A stretch of 64,000 nt of DNA from Escherichia phage Pollock. Made by a program: the position numbers and the translations under genes. The stretch is taken from the sequence record NC_027381.1, one strand, 5' to 3'. Position 1 is the first letter of the stretch. Each line of letters begins with the position of its first letter. The notes under the pieces were generated by a model. That model had not been told where the DNA came from. It saw nothing but the letters and a program-made list of their open reading frames with translations, and ran no database searches. Positions 6,705-60,637 of the stretch are shown in pieces.

Positions 6705-6788
6705 ATGCGTCCTACAGCTATTAAAAAAGCTATTGAAAGAGCTTTTGCAGCAGGACTTGTTCCTTTTATTAAAGGTAGTCCGGGTATT
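6705..6788 (+). CDS. MoxR-like AAA+ ATPase, exon 1 (ends inside Walker A: ...FIKGSPGI)
   Basis: ATG 6705; reading frame stops immediately after GSPGI (TGA at 6789); the GKS that completes the P-loop is at 7179. Confidence 0.55.
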
Positions 6789-7178
6789 TGATTTTACAAG
6801 ATACCCTAAGCAGTGATGCTTAGTAAAAAATCCCTTGAATTGCTGGAAACCCTTAAAGCTGAATTAACTACTGCGAGTTGAAAAACAAAGCCAATGTTTA
6901 AAAATAATTCAGATATGTAGGCAATCAGCAGCCAAGCTCCTAAGGTTTAGGATATTAAGCTATGGAGAAGGTTCAACGACTAGGCGTAAGCCGTACACTC
7001 AAGTGAGTGGAAGTGGGGGACTCTTTACAAACTTACCACCATGGAATACCTTTTGTATTTGCAAAGAAAGGTCTATGTCGTAAATGTAGTAAAGATGAAG
7101 ATATAGTCTCGTCTTATGTGAAAGCATAAGCTGTTTAATAAACAGAGGGTAGCTTAACGAACTACCCTGAAGATTACG
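6789..7178 (+). ncRNA. group I intron 1 (ORF-less), interrupting the AAA ATPase Walker A
   Basis: ~390 nt between exon end (last nt T) and exon 2 (preceded by G); contains AACGACTAGGCG...CTCAAGTGAGTGGAAG core-like element shared with intron 2; exact boundaries approximate. Confidence 0.5.
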
Positions 7179-7421
7179 GGTAAATCTGCAATTATTCGTC
7201 AAATTGCAAAAGAAGCTAAATTATTGGTTATTGACCTTCGTTTAGGTCAATGTGACCCAACTGATTTATTGGGATTTCCAAATATTGAGAATGGACGGTC
7301 TGTATATCATCCACCAAAAGATATTCCAATTATTGGGGATGAAATTCCTAAAGGATATAACGGTTGGCTGTTATTCCTTGATGAAATGAATACAGCACCT
7401 AAAGCTGTTCAGGCTGCTGCT
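7179..7421 (+). CDS. MoxR-like AAA+ ATPase, exon 2 (GKSAIIRQIAKEAKLLVIDLRLGQ ... Walker B LLFLDEMN)
   Basis: no start codon or RBS of its own; in-frame stop at 7155 upstream; ends with stop directly after AVQAAA. Confidence 0.55.
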
Positions 7422-8265
7422 TAAATTAATAGGCATTTATGGGGGAAACCTCATATCTAAAGCTACTTAAAACGGGGAACTCTTAGTAGTGTATATACAC
7501 TAAAGACAATCCGTTGCTAAATAGGAATTAAGATGCAAGAAGTTTGGAAAGCTATTCCCGGATATGAGAAAGAATATGAAATTTCTACTCATGGACGGAT
7601 TAAGAGTTTAGATAGAGTCGTTCCTTGTAAACATGGCACTCGCCTTGTTAAAGGAAAATTATTAAAAACCTATATTAATCGAAAAGGGTATTTAATTGTT
7701 ACTTTATCTAAAGAAAATAAACTGAAAACATATACCGTACATCAGTTAGTTGCTCTTACATTTATTCCAAATTTCATTAAAGGCACAGAAATTAATCATA
7801 AAGACGGTAATAAATCCAATCCAGTATTAGATAATTTAGAAATTAGCAACCCTAGCCATAACCAGTTACATGCTATAGCTACAGGTCTTAAAGCAAAGGT
7901 TGGTAAGAGTAAATACCACAATGTAACTTACATTAAAAACCCACGGGCTAAGAAAAAGTGGGCTGCAAGTATAAGTTATAATGGGGAAAAATCTTTTGGA
8001 TGGAAAACATTTATGACAGAAGAAGAAGCTGCAAGATATGTAGATAAACTTCTTGATGAAATAGGTGATACTTCCCGTTTAAGAAATTTCTAATTAATTC
8101 CTTAAATGCCCAACGACTAGTCGAAAGACGTAGGCTCAAGTGAGTCGAAAAAGTAGCTCCCCAAACAAGTAAAGTTGTGGGGATTGATATAGTCTGCTCT
8201 ATATAGAAATATATAGCTGGATTAATTATCCGGGTAATGATTAACGACCATTACTGAACATAAGG
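7422..8265 (+). mobile_element. group I intron 2 carrying an HNH homing endonuclease ORF (td-like)
   Basis: 7462-7530 CTTAAAACGGGGAACTCTTAGTAG...AGACAATCCGTTGCTAAATAGG closely matches the phage T4 td intron core as recalled; ORF begins right after this element; 3' part has CAACGACTAGTCG...CTCAAGTGAGTCG. Confidence 0.65.
7533..8093 (+). CDS. HNH homing endonuclease (intron-encoded)
   Basis: 186 aa; N-terminal WKAIPGYEKEYEISTHGRIKS, HNH core NHKDGNKSNPVLDNLEISNPSHNQLH, C-terminal AP2-like DNA-binding region. Confidence 0.8.
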   Translation: MQEVWKAIPGYEKEYEISTHGRIKSLDRVVPCKHGTRLVKGKLLKTYINRKGYLIVTLSKENKLKTYTVHQLVALTFIPNFIKGTEINHKDGNKSNPVLDNLEISNPSHNQLHAIATGLKAKVGKSKYHNVTYIKNPRAKKKWAASISYNGEKSFGWKTFMTEEEAARYVDKLLDEIGDTSRLRNF

Positions 8266-8955
8266 TATAAACTGTTGGACCGTATGGTAGGACAAACCAA
8301 ATTACATCCTAGTGTTTATATTGCTGCTGCTGGTAACAAAGATACAGATGGAGCAATTACTACTACTATGAGTAGTGCAACTCTATCTCGTATTGTTAGT
8401 ATGGAACTAGAAGTTAACTTTAATGATTGGGCTGTATGGGCATTAGCCAATAACATTGACCATCGCATCATGGGATATCTTCAGTTCAAACCAGAAGCAT
8501 TCCATAAATTTGACCCTAAAAATCTTAAAGAACCTTTTCCATGCCCACGTACATGGGAGTTCATTAACCGTGCTATTAATGGATTAGATGTATCTTTAAA
8601 TTCTGATTTGGGTTTATTGTCTGGAATTATTGGTAATGGCACTGCTCGTGAATTTATTGAGTATTGTGCTATCTATGGTGAGATTGCTTCCTTTGAAGAA
8701 ATTATGTCTAATCCAGAAAGCATTGTCATCAAAGACAGACCAGACATTAAGTATGCATATGCTGGTTTTGTAGCTTCTCGCATTACCCCTGAAAATGCAT
8801 CTCAATTAATGAAATTCATTAATCGACTGCCCGTTGAATTTCAGATTGTAACTTTGAGTAATGCTTTTAAAGCTAAACCTCTCATTTCTCAAGTTCCAGA
8901 AATAATGGAATGGATTACTCGTTATGCCAACGAGTCAGGTGAAGGGATGCTCTAA
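8266..8955 (+). CDS. MoxR-like AAA+ ATPase, exon 3 (C-terminal part)
   Basis: AVQAAA | (YKL)LDRMVGQTKLHPSVYIAAAGN continues the AAA fold after Walker B; ORF track start 8275 is a TTG; 5' boundary approximate. Confidence 0.5.
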   Translation, partial: YKLLDRMVGQTKLHPSVYIAAAGNKDTDGAITTTMSSATLSRIVSMELEVNFNDWAVWALANNIDHRIMGYLQFKPEAFHKFDPKNLKEPFPCPRTWEFINRAINGLDVSLNSDLGLLSGIIGNGTAREFIEYCAIYGEIASFEEIMSNPESIVIKDRPDIKYAYAGFVASRITPENASQLMKFINRLPVEFQIVTLSNAFKAKPLISQVPEIMEWITRYANESGEGML

Positions 8956-10069
8956 TAAGGAGTTTCCTATGGATAAGAATAAAGCACTGGATTTAGCCAA
9001 AGTAGATTTATTTGCCCGTAAACAAAATACTTTTATTTGTTCCATCTTTTGCTCACTTCAGCTTAAGTGGGACGATACCATCCCTACAGCTTGTACTGAT
9101 GGTTTGAGTATCTTGATAAATCCAGATTATTTTATGGATTTACCACGTCCAATGCGAGTGACACTTCTTGCTCATGAGACGTGGCATGTTGCTTTAAAAC
9201 ATGTCTTAAGGGTTACGGGAAGAAATCCAAAATTATGGAATTATGCTTGTGATTATTACATCAATAATATGCTTGATGATGCTAAGTATGTTATTGGTAC
9301 TGGTTGGCTATTAGACCATCAGTATGATGGCATGAGTGCTCCAGAAATCTATAACAAGCTACAAAAATCCAGTAAAAACCTGCCTCAAAATTTATTAGGT
9401 ATGGATATTAAACCCTGTCCTTCTTCATCAGAAGAAGCTATTGAATCACAAATTGATTCTATGCTTATTCGTGGCTCTATTGCTGCAAAGCAAGGAGGAC
9501 AAGCTGGAAGTATCCCCGGAGATATCCAAGCATATATTGATGAGCTTCTGAATCCTAAATTACCTTGGAACGATATTCTCAGAAATTTTATTAATGAGAT
9601 GACTCGTAATGACTACACTTGGGCTAAACCTAATAAACGGTATTTGCCTGATATTTATTTACCTTCTCTAAATTCTGAAGGTCTAGAACATATCATTTTT
9701 TATACTGATATTTCTGGTTCAGTATCTGATACACAATTTGGTGTGTATATCAGTGAAATTCATGCAATTAAAACAACATTGAATCCAAAACGAATTACAG
9801 TATGTACGTTCGATACAAAGATTCATGAAGTGTATGAATTAGAAGAAGGAGATGATATTAGTAAGTGTACGTTTACAGGTAGAGGAGGTACATCTCTTAC
9901 TTGTGTGTATGAACATGCTAAGAAAGAGAAACCAGAACTCATCGTAATATTTTCTGATTTGGATTGTGCTCCAATGAAGGAACAACCTACACCTAATGTC
10001 ATTTGGGTATGTTTGGACAATCCAACAAAAACAGTTGATTTTGGTCAACTGATTCATGTGAAAAGTTAA
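8924..10069 (+). CDS. HExxH metallopeptidase-like / von Willebrand factor A domain protein (MoxR partner)
   Basis: 381 aa; LLAHETWHVALKH (HExxH); MIDAS-like IIFYTDISGSVSD (DxSxS); overlaps ATPase 3' end. Confidence 0.6.
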   Translation: MPTSQVKGCSNKEFPMDKNKALDLAKVDLFARKQNTFICSIFCSLQLKWDDTIPTACTDGLSILINPDYFMDLPRPMRVTLLAHETWHVALKHVLRVTGRNPKLWNYACDYYINNMLDDAKYVIGTGWLLDHQYDGMSAPEIYNKLQKSSKNLPQNLLGMDIKPCPSSSEEAIESQIDSMLIRGSIAAKQGGQAGSIPGDIQAYIDELLNPKLPWNDILRNFINEMTRNDYTWAKPNKRYLPDIYLPSLNSEGLEHIIFYTDISGSVSDTQFGVYISEIHAIKTTLNPKRITVCTFDTKIHEVYELEEGDDISKCTFTGRGGTSLTCVYEHAKKEKPELIVIFSDLDCAPMKEQPTPNVIWVCLDNPTKTVDFGQLIHVKS

Positions 10070-16151: not shown

Positions 16152-16396
16152 TGGATATCGCATTTGTAGTTTCCAAATTGATTGTTACAGAGTACACGTT
16201 GCTTAGACAATGGTGGCCTGAACAATTACGTCAATCCAGATATGTAGATAATGGAATGACTAGAACTTACTTCTTAGATACACATCCATCCCCTGAACTT
16301 CAAGAACTCATAGAAGAGTTACATAAGTTTGGGAGAGAGTATCGACTTATAGATTTAAGAGGAGTGGAAATAGATAATGCGTCATATAATCTTTGA
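16151..16396 (+). CDS. hypothetical protein
   Basis: 81-aa ORF. Confidence 0.35.
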   Translation: MDIAFVVSKLIVTEYTLLRQWWPEQLRQSRYVDNGMTRTYFLDTHPSPELQELIEELHKFGREYRLIDLRGVEIDNASYNL

Positions 16397-18323
16397 ACAA
16401 AATCAAAGATATCCAATCGCCATTCTTATTAAACCTCAACAACTAAAGAAGAAAGAGATATTAGAAGCTTATATCAATCCTACTGGAATCAAGCCAAATC
16501 AATTTATTGCATTTGACCTTGAGTACAATGGGAAAAAAGCTCCTGTATCTATGCAGAAAGACTATCTTAAAGTCTTACTACCAGAGCTTTGTAATTTAAG
16601 AACAGAATATATTCTGTGCTGTGATAGTGCATATTTCAAAACCTTAACCAAGCAATCTAAAGCAGAACCTCATTGTGGTTATGTATTGCCTTGTGTCATT
16701 CCTGGTTTTGAACATCTAAATATTATTTTCTGTCCTAATTATGCTCAGATTTTCTATGACCCTTCTGTACAGGATAAAGTTAATCTGGCTCTCAAAGTTC
16801 TAGTAGATAAGGTAAATGGTCAATACCAAGAGATTGGTAAGAACATTATCCATACTGCTTACTATCCTTCTACAGTTGAAGAAATTGAAGCTTGGCTTGA
16901 ATCTCTACATCAATATCCAATTCTAGCTTCAGATATAGAGGCATTTAGTCTTAAATTCTATAAAGCAGGTGTAGGTACTATTGGATTTGCATGGGACCAA
17001 CACAATGGAGGAGCATTCGCTGTTGATTATACGAATGAACCAGACAAGGCTGAAAGAATTAGGCAGGCTCTTAAGAAGTTTTTTGAAACTTATGAAGGCA
17101 AACTGATTTGGCATAACTCAAGTTATGACTTAACAGTGCTTATTTACCAGCTTTGGATGAATGGTTTAGTAGACCAAAAAGGATTGCTTAAGGGTTTGCA
17201 CATCATGTGTCGTAATTTTCACGATACTAAGATTGTGACATATCTGGCTACAAACTCTTGTGCAGGTAATGAGTTAGGGCTAAAAGCTCAAGCTCATGAA
17301 TTTGCAGGAAACTATGCACAAGAAGATATTGATGATATTACTAAAATCCCATTACCAGACCTTCTGGAGTACAACTTAATTGACTGTCTAAGTACTTGGT
17401 ATGTTGCAGACAAACATGCAGATACTATGGTATTGGATGAACAATGGGAAATTTATAATACTCTGATGTTACCTTCGCTGAAGAATATTATTCAGATGCA
17501 ATTAACTGGTATGCCTATTGATATGGCAGAGGTTAAGAAGGTTAAAGCAGAAATGATTAAAGAGCGAGATGGTTATCTTAGAGCCATCAAGTCATTTGCA
17601 GTAGTAGATTTGTTAGTTAACAACCTACGTAAACAACATGTTGCTACTAGAAATGCTACGCTCAAAACCAAGCAAATTACAATGTCTGATGAGGAGACAT
17701 TAGCAATAGAGTTTAATCCAAACTCTAACCCTCAAATGCAGGAACTTTTGTATGAAATTATGGGATTACCTGTAATTGATTTAACTGATTCTAAGCAGCC
17801 TGCTACTGGTGCAGATACTCTAGAAAAGTTAATTCATCATACAGATGATGATAGACAGAAAAAGATTCTTGAATGCCTTATTAAATATTCTAAGGTAGAA
17901 AAAATTCTTTCTGCATTTATACCTGCATTCGAAGAAGCACCTTTAGCTGAAGATGGTACTCATTATTTATTCGGAAGCTATAACTTAGGTGGTACTGTAT
18001 CTGGTCGTTTGAGTTCATCAAAACCAAACATGCAACAAATTCCTTCCTCTAAGAGTCCTTACGCCAAACCTATAAAACGATGTTTTAAAGCTGGTAAAGG
18101 TTGGCTTCTTATTGGATTAGATTTTGCATCTCTTGAAGACCGTATTTCTGCTCTAACAACCAAAGACCCTAATAAATTGAAAGTGTATATGGGGGTGAAT
18201 GTTTATACGGTTACTATAGAGGGGGTTGACCATCATATTCGAGATGACGATACAATCATTTATGATGGTAAAACTTACACTGGTGAAGAGTTCTATGATG
18301 CTTTTACCTGTGGCCTTCTATGA
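16377..18323 (+). CDS. family A DNA polymerase, N-terminal polypeptide (3'-5' exonuclease + pol motif A)
   Basis: 648 aa; exo motifs ASDIEAFSL, YNLIDC; SGRLSSSKPNMQQIP; motif A LDFASLEDRI; homology ends near KVYMG (~18194) then reads ~43 codons into the inserted HNH element. Confidence 0.8.
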   Translation: MRHIIFEQNQRYPIAILIKPQQLKKKEILEAYINPTGIKPNQFIAFDLEYNGKKAPVSMQKDYLKVLLPELCNLRTEYILCCDSAYFKTLTKQSKAEPHCGYVLPCVIPGFEHLNIIFCPNYAQIFYDPSVQDKVNLALKVLVDKVNGQYQEIGKNIIHTAYYPSTVEEIEAWLESLHQYPILASDIEAFSLKFYKAGVGTIGFAWDQHNGGAFAVDYTNEPDKAERIRQALKKFFETYEGKLIWHNSSYDLTVLIYQLWMNGLVDQKGLLKGLHIMCRNFHDTKIVTYLATNSCAGNELGLKAQAHEFAGNYAQEDIDDITKIPLPDLLEYNLIDCLSTWYVADKHADTMVLDEQWEIYNTLMLPSLKNIIQMQLTGMPIDMAEVKKVKAEMIKERDGYLRAIKSFAVVDLLVNNLRKQHVATRNATLKTKQITMSDEETLAIEFNPNSNPQMQELLYEIMGLPVIDLTDSKQPATGADTLEKLIHHTDDDRQKKILECLIKYSKVEKILSAFIPAFEEAPLAEDGTHYLFGSYNLGGTVSGRLSSSKPNMQQIPSSKSPYAKPIKRCFKAGKGWLLIGLDFASLEDRISALTTKDPNKLKVYMGVNVYTVTIEGVDHHIRDDDTIIYDGKTYTGEEFYDAFTCGLL

Positions 18324-18840
18324 ACAACGGTATAAGATTTTTGATGAAGGTTTCATCTTAAATCTTGCAAACAATCAACTCCTAAAACCAATTCTCAATT
18401 CTAATGGATACCTTAAAGTTGGATTAGCTAATGGTGATGGTACTCATCATCAAGAGCTACTTCATATTCTGGTAGCTAAACACTTCATTCTAAATCCTTA
18501 TGGCTACAAACAGGTAAACCATAAAGATGGTAATAAACTGCATTGCCATAAGGACAATCTGGAATTGTGTTCTGCTACTCAGAACGTCAAACATGCATTT
18601 AAAACAGGACTACGCCCCGGTTATATGTCTGCTGATGATAAAGAGAAATATCTCTTTGAGGTACTAGCAGGCAAGCAAGTTAAGGACATTGCTTTTGAAA
18701 TAGGCAGACGTCCTGAAACTCTGCACAAGATGCTTAGAATCACTGCTGACCGACTTGGTATCCGAAATGAATGGGACGATGTTATGAGGAGAAATAGAAA
18801 AGATGTTGCTTTACGACAGCTTGCCAAAATCAACTCATGA
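18226..18840 (+). CDS. HNH homing endonuclease inserted within the DNA polymerase gene
   Basis: 204 aa; HNH core VNHKDGNKLHCHKDNLELCSATQNVKH; different frame from both polymerase parts; true start may be an internal Met (~18295). Confidence 0.7.
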   Translation: MTIIFEMTIQSFMMVKLTLVKSSMMLLPVAFYEQRYKIFDEGFILNLANNQLLKPILNSNGYLKVGLANGDGTHHQELLHILVAKHFILNPYGYKQVNHKDGNKLHCHKDNLELCSATQNVKHAFKTGLRPGYMSADDKEKYLFEVLAGKQVKDIAFEIGRRPETLHKMLRITADRLGIRNEWDDVMRRNRKDVALRQLAKINS

Positions 18841-19663
18841 CTTCACTGGCAAGAAAATTGACAACGTAGTCAAGGCTGGTAATTCGTCAGGGTATGATGG
18901 TCATAGTTTGAGGGCATTTGCTTACTTTGGCGACCAGATGCCTGATATTGTAGATACTGTGGAAAGTATCAATAGTATTCAGGAATTATATAAGGACTTT
19001 AGACAAGACTCTAAAGCTCCTACTTTTGCATTAACTTATCAAGGTACTTATCACACATTAATGGCTAACTGTGGTTTCCCAGAGGATAAAGCCAAAATGG
19101 TTGAGAAGAGGTATCACGAACTCTACTTCGTATCTGACCAATGGGTAAACGCTAAATTAACTCAAGCCAGTAAAGATGGATATATCACTGCTGCATTTGG
19201 ATTAAGAATCCGTACTCCATTACTTAAAAATGTTGTCTGGGGAATTAAACAAACTCCTTATGAAGCTAAAGCTGAAGGCAGAACTGCTGGAAATGCTTTA
19301 GGTCAATCATGGTGTTTATTAAATAACAGGGCAGCAAATGAATTTATGGAACGAGTATGGAATTCTCCATACGCATATGTAATTAAACCATGTGCTCAAA
19401 TCCATGATGCTCAATATTATCTGGTTCCAGATAACATCGACATTGTTCATTGGGTTAATGAAAATTTAGTCGAATGTATTGAGTGGCAAAACCATCCTGA
19501 TATTTATCACGATAAAGTGAAATTAGGAGGGGAATTAAGCGTCTTTTATCCATCATGGGCTAATGATATTTCATTGAAAAATGGAGCCTCTAAAGAGGAA
19601 ATCTTAAGCACATGTGAAATTGGATTAGATAAGTATCTTTACCCGGAGAAATATAAAAAATGA
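18803..19663 (+). CDS. family A DNA polymerase, C-terminal polypeptide (motifs B and C)
   Basis: 286 aa; YDGHSLRAFAYFGD (cf. Pol I DIHRATAAEVFG), motif B-like RQDSKAPTFALTYQGTY, motif C QIHDAQYY; own ATG overlapping the HNH ORF 3' end. Confidence 0.8.
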   Translation: MLLYDSLPKSTHDFTGKKIDNVVKAGNSSGYDGHSLRAFAYFGDQMPDIVDTVESINSIQELYKDFRQDSKAPTFALTYQGTYHTLMANCGFPEDKAKMVEKRYHELYFVSDQWVNAKLTQASKDGYITAAFGLRIRTPLLKNVVWGIKQTPYEAKAEGRTAGNALGQSWCLLNNRAANEFMERVWNSPYAYVIKPCAQIHDAQYYLVPDNIDIVHWVNENLVECIEWQNHPDIYHDKVKLGGELSVFYPSWANDISLKNGASKEEILSTCEIGLDKYLYPEKYKK

Positions 19664-59115: not shown

Positions 59116-59788
59116 TTATTAGTTTAGTATGAGCAACTTCTTTAGCGGAATACAAACCACCTTCAATGAGTTGTTGCTGCTTCGCAGCTAATCTTGAAGT
59201 TATTTCTCTTAATTCATTAATAACTCCACCTTCCTGAATACCAACATTGAGTTCAATCTTACTGGCTTCAGGACGTTTAAGATGATTAAGCAATGAGTTG
59301 GCTGCATCACATCTAACTTTTTCACTTTTAGCTGTCAACATTAAATCAGCTTGTACATTAATAGCTTTCTGGAATATGTCAGCATTAAGTACATGAGTTG
59401 GAACCAAAGTTTGCTCATAAATTAAATTAACTAATTTATTTTTATTATATGCAGATACATAACAATGAATGTCCTTAGTAGGAGTATTGTTATTTAAGAA
59501 GTTCTGATATCTATCAGGGAATGTTTTTATGTAAGCTTCAAAGTTAGTGTGTCCCATCAGTTTAAAACTTACGTACTTAACAGCAGAGATATAGTCTTCA
59601 ATCTTAAACCTACCTTCTTTCATGACATGGGTATAAGACATTAAGTTATCTCTAAGTACTTCACCCATATTAGGGTCAGACAGAATCTTATTGATTTTAT
59701 CCATCAATTCTTGATTGATGTTGCCTTTATGATTAGTAGGCATTACAGCTTTAAATTGTTCTACGGTTAATTGAGTAGACATGAGCAC
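59087..59788 (-). CDS. hypothetical protein (possible terminase small subunit by position)
   Basis: 233-aa ORF immediately upstream of terminase large subunit on minus strand. Confidence 0.35.
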   Translation of the reverse strand: MLMSTQLTVEQFKAVMPTNHKGNINQELMDKINKILSDPNMGEVLRDNLMSYTHVMKEGRFKIEDYISAVKYVSFKLMGHTNFEAYIKTFPDRYQNFLNNNTPTKDIHCYVSAYNKNKLVNLIYEQTLVPTHVLNADIFQKAINVQADLMLTAKSEKVRCDAANSLLNHLKRPEASKIELNVGIQEGGVINELREITSRLAAKQQQLIEGGLYSAKEVAHTKLIIDGESERVD

Positions 59789-60307: not shown

Positions 60308-60384
60308 CGGAATGTAGCACAGCCGGGTAGTGCATCTGCTTTGGGAGCAGAGGGTCATAGGTTCAAATCCTATCATTCCGACCA
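60308..60384 (+). tRNA. tRNA-Pro (anticodon UGG)
   Basis: hand-folded cloverleaf: acceptor CGGAATG/CATTCCG, anticodon loop TTTGGGA, T-loop TTCAAAT, encoded CCA. Confidence 0.75.
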
Positions 60385-60389
60385 AATTA

Positions 60390-60467
60390 TTCCCGTTTAG
60401 CTTAATTGGTTAAAGCACCCGACTCATAATCGGATGATTACAGGTTCGAATCCTGTCACGGGAACCA
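60390..60467 (+). tRNA. tRNA-Met or Ile2 (anticodon CAU)
   Basis: hand-folded: anticodon loop CTCATAA, T-arm ACAGG-TTCGAAT-CCTGT, encoded CCA; exact 5' end ambiguous by 1 nt. Confidence 0.65.
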
Positions 60468-60471
60468 AAAT

Positions 60472-60547
60472 GCATCCTTAGCTCAATGGATAGAGCAGTA
60501 GCCTTCTAAGCTATTGGTTACAGGTTCGAATCCTGTAGGATGCACCA
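60472..60547 (+). tRNA. tRNA-Arg (anticodon UCU)
   Basis: hand-folded: acceptor GCATCCT/AGGATGC, anticodon loop CTTCTAA, T-loop TTCGAAT, encoded CCA. Confidence 0.75.
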
Positions 60548-60552
60548 TATTA

Positions 60553-60637
60553 GGGAGTATGGTGAAATTGGTAAACACAAGGGATTTAAAATCCCTCGCT
60601 TAATTGCTTACGAGTTCGAGTCTCGTTACTCCCACCA
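60553..60637 (+). tRNA. tRNA-Leu (anticodon UAA)
   Basis: hand-folded: acceptor GGGAGTA/TACTCCC, anticodon loop TTTAAAA, long variable arm, T-loop TTCGAGT, encoded CCA. Confidence 0.75.

Follow-up and report, generated by a model that had tools for sequence, protein, structure and literature searches.

What splits the ATPase gene of Escherichia phage Pollock? Within the 64,000 nucleotides of this genome that were analysed here (the window; NC_027381.1), the coding sequence of an N4 gp24-like ATPase is interrupted by a region, 7422–8265, which an original prediction made from the letters of the window had taken for a td-like group I intron carrying an HNH homing endonuclease. Such a region may be spliced out of the messenger as a mobile intron, or an endonuclease gene may have left its host gene in pieces. 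We conclude with high confidence that 7422–8265 represents a mobile intron of group I, subgroup IA2, of the same type as td in T4, and set out below the gene structure, ribozyme anatomy, endonuclease and distribution that bear on this conclusion.

An ATPase gene of three exons

The interrupted gene, which belongs to the MoxR/AAA ATPases and has about 1 kb of coding sequence, is made of three exons and two introns, the second of which contains an open reading frame (ORF):

6705–6788, + strand: exon 1 of the ATPase, 28 codons, ending ...GSPGI within Walker A, placed by the colinearity of the spliced product
6789–7178, + strand: intron 1, group I, without an ORF, 390 nt, placed by its Rfam Intron_gpI match and its absence from relatives
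7179–7421, + strand: exon 2 of the ATPase, 81 codons, GKSAII...AVQAAA
7422–8265, + strand: intron 2, td-like (IA2) group I, 844 nt, first codon an in-frame UAA, last base G8265
7533–8093, + strand: intron ORF with an ATG start inside the P6a loop, predicted 186-aa HNH homing endonuclease (NUMOD4 + HNH_3)
8266–8955, + strand: exon 3 of the ATPase, 229 codons plus stop, beginning YKLLDRMVG...

Conceptual splicing of the three exons yields a 338-aa ATPase in which the Walker A motif (GSPGI|GKS) is whole, and this protein aligns from residue 1 to residue 338, as a single tblastn piece at 85–86% identity, with genes of exactly 1014 bp in its ten closest relatives. These uninterrupted genes include those of Salmonella phages SP154, S5, FSL SP-076 and SP-058 and of Shigella phage B2, and their single-piece colinearity with the spliced product places the splice sites of both introns with single-base precision. 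The product also matches PHROG 1297 'ATPase' over residues 1–332 (E=1e-121). For intron 2, the span originally proposed proves correct to the base: U7421 is the last base of the 5′ exon and G8265 the last base of the intron, the insertion lies between codons 109 and 110 (...AVQAAA|YKLL...), and excision of 7422–8265 restores the frame. The intron has a GC content of 33%.

A td-like ribozyme

The non-coding parts of intron 2 can be folded into the complete set of helices of a group I intron, as follows:

7418–7435, + strand: P1 hairpin, 7418–7423 (UGCU|UA) with the guide 7430–7435 (UAGGCA), from the sequence and the unconstrained minimum free energy (MFE) fold
7438–7444 with 7449–7455, + strand: P2, with a GAAA loop
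7461–7466 (5′ strand) and 8153–8158 (3′ strand), + strand: P3
7471–7475 with 7511–7515, + strand: P4
7481–7484 with 7503–7506, + strand: P5, with a P5a extension that is missing in td
7516–7517 (5′ strand) and 8108–8109 (3′ strand), + strand: P6, with the internal loop UAAAU/UAAAU
7523–7531, + strand: 5′ strand of P6a (AGGAAUUAA), pairing with 8094–8102
8094–8109, + strand: 3′ strand of P6a (8094–8102), then the UAAAU internal loop and the 3′ strand of P6
8115–8119 (5′ strand, GACUA) and 8190–8194 (3′ strand, UAGUC), + strand: P7
8120–8129 and 8133–8146, + strand: P7.1 and P7.2, respectively
8159–8182, + strand: P8, followed by J8/7
8115–8194, + strand: 3′ half of the catalytic core, from td identity, partial Rfam match and covariation
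8199–8265, + strand: peripheral 3′ domain, with P9 (8199–8216), P9.1 (8217–8233) and P9.2 (8234–8254, loop AUUAACGAC)
ending at 8265, + strand: 3′ splice site, ...CAUAAGG|

The homology of this RNA to the T4 td intron (reference sequence NC_000866.4) is, at the level of a BLAST comparison, decisive. Alignment to td, which had been proposed as a check, gives significant similarity on both sides of the ORF: the 5′ non-coding part (111 nt) is 87.8% identical to that of td over 82 aligned positions (z=5.2 against shuffles), and for the 172 nt of 3′ non-coding sequence identity reaches 89.1% (129 aligned positions; z=15.7). The string quoted in the original prediction is present at 7466–7526, which reads CTTAAAACGGGGAACTCTTAGTAG...AGACAATCCGTTGCTAAATAGG (its start had been given as 7462, an immaterial 4 nt upstream), and the td sequence that the prediction set against it is found without a mismatch in the T4 intron itself. 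The two introns share the helices P1 to P9.2 in the same order, including P7.1/P7.2 and P9.1/P9.2, and are identical in P7, in J8/7 (GAUAUAGUC), in the internal loop of P6 and in the loop of P9.2; both also carry an endonuclease ORF in the loop closed by P6a and an in-frame UAA at the intron start. They differ in host gene (thymidylate synthase in T4, an AAA ATPase here), in length (1017 nt in T4, 844 nt here), in the extra P5a hairpin and shorter P7.1 of Pollock, and in P1 and the guide sequence, as different exons require.

The assignment to subgroup IA2 rests on P7.1/P7.2 between P7 and the 3′ strand of P3, on the P9.1/P9.2 extension and on sequence homology to td. All helices from P1 to P9.2 can be drawn in canonical order, using standard pairs only, in six introns: Pollock intron 2, T4 td, and those of Klebsiella phage Pylas, Vibrio phages pVco-5 and JA-1, and Pseudomonas phage ZC03. 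Similarly, the unconstrained MFE fold of the ORF-deleted RNA (z=-4.4) recovers P1, P2, P3, P4, P5, P6, P6a, P7.1, P7.2, P8, P9, P9.1 and P9.2, with the U7421·G7432 wobble in P1 at the 5′ splice site; P7 is a pseudoknot, which such folding cannot predict, and is absent from that fold. Covariation was counted on an alignment of five introns. In this alignment 89.5% of cells are paired (33–42% when the partners are slid), two-sided changes occur in 38 of the 81 pairs (6–11 when slid), and none of 500 shuffles reaches the observed values; P7 is invariant among these introns and uninformative in this respect. A MAFFT alignment that included pVco-5 and JA-1 misaligned the enlarged P7.1–P8 region of these two, and the count was made on the five better-aligned introns, while pVco-5 and JA-1 were checked helix by helix instead.

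Database searches point the same way. A permissive scan with Rfam Intron_gpI (RF00028) matches both halves of intron 2, at 7412–7638 (33.5 bits, E=1.3e-6) and 8057–8216 (28.9 bits, E=3.2e-5), whereas at the gathering threshold the whole 64-kb window returns the ORF-less intron (6778–7130) and not intron 2. By BLAST, the 3′ core matches introns in 166 phage records. Ten records of Lactococcus phages, AM1 and LW81 among them, contain unannotated DNA that matches 8186–8217 (32 nt, comprising J8/7, the 3′ strand of P7 and P9) at 100% identity; these matches presumably mark related introns in unrelated phages. An exact copy of the core motif GATATAGTCT at 59588–59597 was considered as a possible third intron; it lies within a 233-aa ORF on the minus strand, has no Rfam signal, and was set aside as a chance match.

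Intron 2 is probably self-splicing, and its anatomy suggests how the reaction would run. In the pre-mRNA the intron would fold into the P1–P9.2 core, and an exogenous guanosine bound at P7 would attack 3′ of U7421, held in P1 by its wobble with the guide. The released 5′ exon would then attack directly 3′ of G8265, the last base of the intron. A short P10 would provide the alignment, AUA in the guide being able to pair with UAU at the start of exon 3, and ligation of GCUGCU to UAUAAA would restore the 338-aa ATPase. As an in-frame UAA opens the intron, translation of unspliced RNA would stop immediately.

An HNH endonuclease in the P6a loop

The ORF at 7533–8093 was correctly recognized in the original prediction, and so was its position in the P6a-closed loop (7523–7531 with 8094–8102), which is where I-TevI sits in td. 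Its 186-aa product scores above the Pfam cut-offs for NUMOD4 (60.9 bits, cut-off 23.4; E=1.4e-16) and HNH_3 (28.1 bits, cut-off 24.8; E=1.5e-6), matches PHROG 59 'HNH endonuclease' (E=2.8e-40), and over residues 5–136 matches I-HmuI (PDB 1U3E; E=4.3e-12), the HNH nicking enzyme from the DNA polymerase intron of Bacillus phage SPO1. The homology to I-HmuI spans the N-terminal NUMOD4-type β-region and the HNH core, where 'NHKDGNKSN..DNL' aligns with 'DHKDGNKDN..TNL' and the catalytic H...N...N residues are kept. Each enzyme is encoded within a phage group I intron; host gene and phage group differ, and the C-terminal DNA-binding regions do not align. An AP2-type DNA-binding domain was considered for the C-terminus of the Pollock enzyme and dropped, having no Pfam support. 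Of the predicted 'T4-type intron/homing-endonuclease pair', only the RNA is of T4 type; the enzyme is I-HmuI-like and unrelated to the GIY-YIG endonuclease I-TevI.

Against its homologues the ORF has a ratio of nonsynonymous to synonymous substitution rates (dN/dS) of 0.17–0.28 in those comparisons where dS is unsaturated. Its Shine–Dalgarno sequence, AGGA, lies 6 nt upstream of the AUG and within the 5′ strand of P6a, so that folding of the ribozyme should occlude it, and competition between ribozyme folding and endonuclease translation would be expected. The control of I-TevI in T4 resembles such an arrangement.

Distribution and probable mobility

Intron 2 is absent from all ten of the closest relatives, in which the ATPases are 85–86% identical to that of Pollock. 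These are the intron-less alleles that the original prediction had asked for, and they define the homing site as GCTGCA|TACAAA, whereas all intron-bearing alleles read GCTGCT|TATAA. The synonymous differences in the flanks fit a requirement for U at position −1 together with co-conversion of exon bases during homing. At the identical codon boundary, and with identical P1 and guide, the intron occurs in Pylas, pVco-5, JA-1/VCO139 and a metagenomic high-GC N4-like phage, L012. The endonucleases of Pylas, pVco-5 and L012 are 61%, 63% and 68% identical to that of Pollock, while the host ATPases of these three phages and JA-1 are 77%, 36%, 49% and 37% identical; because the endonuclease identities do not follow those of the ATPases, divergence of the element is out of step with that of its host gene. 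In JA-1 the AAA|YK site holds a related ribozyme with a different, 128-aa HNH protein, which indicates that ribozyme and ORF also move independently of each other.

Presence/absence polymorphism at a single site and a phylogeny discordant with that of the host, by which mobile introns are recognized, are both found here, and intron 2 is probably mobile. The 186-aa HNH enzyme would most likely nick or cut intron-less alleles in co-infecting related phages, whereupon recombinational repair would copy the intron, with a few flanking exon bases, into the cut allele.

Precedents in N4-like phages

The td-type intron of Pollock with its HNH gene is neither the first in an N4-like phage nor the first in the gp24-like ATPase gene, and the surprise implied by the original prediction at finding such an element in an N4-like genome does not hold. 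Klebsiella phage Pylas (NC_049444.1) already carries an annotation of this intron at the identical position: the GenBank notes for gp35/gp36 read 'ATPase split by intron' and 'HNH Homing Endonuclease encoded in intron', and the record is also worded 'HNH Intron splits the protein; ATPase split by intron'; the intron appears in this record only and is not mentioned in the Pylas genome paper. Pylas and Pollock share the orthologous gene, the insertion point (GCTGCT|TAA...), P1, the guide and a homologous endonuclease, and the introns are 66% identical in nucleotides over 93% of the Pollock intron 2. Pylas differs in lacking the Walker A intron, in an ORF that runs on into P7.1, and in that its intron is more diverged than its host gene.

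Fouts et al. (2013; PMC3670811) described HNH genes that split the homologues of gp24, DNA polymerase and gp43 in Vibrio phages JA-1 and VCO139, and went no further than to suggest that these endonucleases 'may be carried on an intron'. We find introns in JA-1 at both of the Pollock insertion sites (GSPGV|GKS and AAA|YK), and pVco-5 likewise has the second intron with its related endonuclease. The Walker A intron of JA-1 carries an HNH ORF where that of Pollock is ORF-less, the HNH protein of its second intron is the different one noted above, and the P5 and P7.1/P7.2 regions of the Vibrio introns are enlarged. Similarly, an 'HE within ATPase-domain-containing protein' was reported in Pseudomonas phages ZC03 and ZC08, where it was treated as an endonuclease insertion and the host protein taken for a ribonucleotide reductase (Amgarten et al., 2017; PMC5418858). 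In ZC03 (1836–2750), the orthologous ATPase gene is interrupted at a third site, EPQD|FTGLP, by a td-like intron that contains an HNH ORF. The 3′ core of this intron is 70% identical to that of Pollock intron 2; the insertion lies near codon 55 in Pollock numbering, hence P1 and the guide sequence differ. Beyond the ATPase gene, the record of the N4-like Pseudomonas phage Pa_WF01 has Intron_gpI annotated in the RNA polymerase gene.

We found no systematic description of a td-like intron family in N4-like phages in the literature searched, and a modest novelty may lie in three intron sites within one gene of about 1 kb across the family, two of them occupied in Pollock and one of these endonuclease-free. 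On balance we lean slightly towards a broader reading, in which the ATPase gene is a recurrent homing hot spot of the Schitoviridae. It would have taken up td-like introns independently at three or more sites (GSPG[IV]|GKS in Walker A, DPxD|[LF] and AAA|YK), ribozymes and HNH genes would pass between phages of Vibrio, Klebsiella, Salmonella type and probably Pseudomonas type, and Pollock would be a recent double recipient, one of whose introns is already without its endonuclease.

Alternative readings

Several points weigh against a mobile td-type intron at 7422–8265. Neither half of it reaches the Rfam gathering score of 50 bits, so that the Rfam check proposed in the original prediction succeeded only in part, likely because the 566-nt ORF loop separates the two halves. 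The structure used to count covariation was taken from the Pollock intron itself, which inflates the measure of paired cells, and the alignment holds five sequences only; nevertheless, the excess of compensatory changes is large. No Pfam match covers the C-terminal DNA-binding region of the enzyme, and dS is saturated in most endonuclease comparisons, which limits dN/dS as evidence for current purifying selection. Finally, splicing catalysis, the activity and specificity of the endonuclease, and homing are all deduced from sequence.

Some of these points leave room for an intron that still splices but no longer moves, its HNH ORF being inactive or serving in another role (e.g. as a maturase) and the intron persisting as a fixed passenger. 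An inactive endonuclease with a working ribozyme is the sole live alternative, and we consider it unlikely. It would suit the C-terminus without a family match, and the ORF-less intron 1 in the same gene demonstrates that endonuclease-free introns persist in this genome. Against it, the ORF is full length, with a good Shine–Dalgarno sequence and AUG and an HNH core that is intact in comparison with I-HmuI; the dN/dS values are low and endonuclease similarity does not track that of the host gene; and absence of the intron from the closest relatives points to recent gain over old fixation.

A mobile intron is also to be preferred, by a much wider measure, over a gene that is not spliced at all, in which a free-standing HNH cassette would have cut the ATPase into separately translated, reassembling pieces. 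The split nrdA of phage Aeh1 is a precedent for such 'genes in pieces', the database annotations of pVco-5, JA-1 and ZC03 list the ATPase fragments as separate coding sequences, and the DNA polymerase gene of Pollock itself is split by an HNH ORF around which no ribozyme was detected (see below). Yet the roughly 280 nt of non-coding flank around the ORF form a complete, covarying, td-like catalytic core, the boundaries obey the U...G rule of group I introns, and excision restores the frame exactly, so that we regard separate translation as very improbable. Moreover, the exon 3 junction has neither a start codon nor a ribosome-binding site, the first start being a TTG three codons downstream, and exon 1, with 28 codons only and Walker A split at its end, could not act as a separate subunit. 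The last possibility, that the td resemblance is chance or low complexity and the ORF an ordinary intergenic endonuclease gene, might draw on the AT-rich composition and the missed Rfam threshold, but is already refuted by the td alignments, the Rfam E-values, the 38 compensatory pairs and the 166 matching phage records.

Intron 1 and the split DNA polymerase gene

Intron 1 is the more readily recognized of the two introns, matching Rfam Intron_gpI on 6778–7130 at 101.4 bits (E=4e-25). The last exon base before it, U6788, pairs with G in P1 (GGGUAUU/GAUACCC), and its terminal base is G7178. It interrupts Walker A (GSPGI|GKS) at the codon boundary where JA-1 has its HNH-bearing intron, and is missing from SP-076 and SP154. 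Just before the 3′ strand of P7, intron 1 encodes GLCRKCSKDEDIV, which bears a weak resemblance, judged by eye over 13 aa, to GICNSCAKEQDIV, the C-terminus of the JA-1 endonuclease, and may be the remnant of a lost endonuclease ORF; tblastn of the JA-1 intron-1 endonuclease against Pollock intron 1 gave nothing significant.

The DNA polymerase gene (16377–19663) is split as well. Residues 1–604 of the FSL SP-076 polymerase correspond to 16377–18188 and residues 605–863 to 18884–19660, and the 695-nt insert between them (18189–18883) carries an HNH ORF paralogous to that of intron 2 (phmmer E=1.4e-12), and each of the three pieces of the locus lies in a different reading frame. A search for a ribozyme around this ORF gave no Rfam match at E≤1. 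The insert could be an undetected intron, or a free-standing endonuclease whose insertion leaves the polymerase gene in pieces.

Annotation and genome context

No concept is changed by intron 2; its practical value is a correct annotation, in which the ATPase is one 338-aa protein from three exons and not the fragments returned by gene callers. The ATPases of pVco-5, JA-1 and ZC03 are misannotated as fragments in public records. The locus is a further well-defined instance of the movement of td-type introns between phage groups that are not related, and Pollock with FSL SP-076 or SP154 offers a natural pair of intron-plus and intron-minus alleles for the study of I-HmuI-type homing in enterobacterial N4-like phages.

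Two further PHROG families match the spliced ATPase, phrog_21479 (a 68-aa profile; ATPase residues 7–58) and phrog_16335 (residues 7–162), and look as if they had been made from the ATPase exon fragments of intron-bearing phages. Downstream of the ATPase, the gene at 8924–10069 encodes a vWA/DUF2201 metallopeptidase-like product. Its homologues in Pylas, FSL SP-076, pVco-5, ZC03 and JA-1 bear the RefSeq label 'HNH endonuclease', which looks like a propagated naming error.

The genome was rightly called N4-like from its letters: across 24 kb it is about 82% identical in nucleotides to Salmonella phages FSL SP-076 and SP-058 (Schitoviridae, Humphriesvirinae, Ithacavirus). As identity to the window is no higher than about 82% even for the closest phage in INPHARED, the N4-like phage of this stretch is probably novel at the level of species or genus. 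An IMG/VR contig, IMGVR_UViG_2706796286_000001 (68,365 bp), is 100% identical to the window over the 3,387 bases compared. Elsewhere in the window, four tRNA genes are clustered at 60308–60634 on the + strand.

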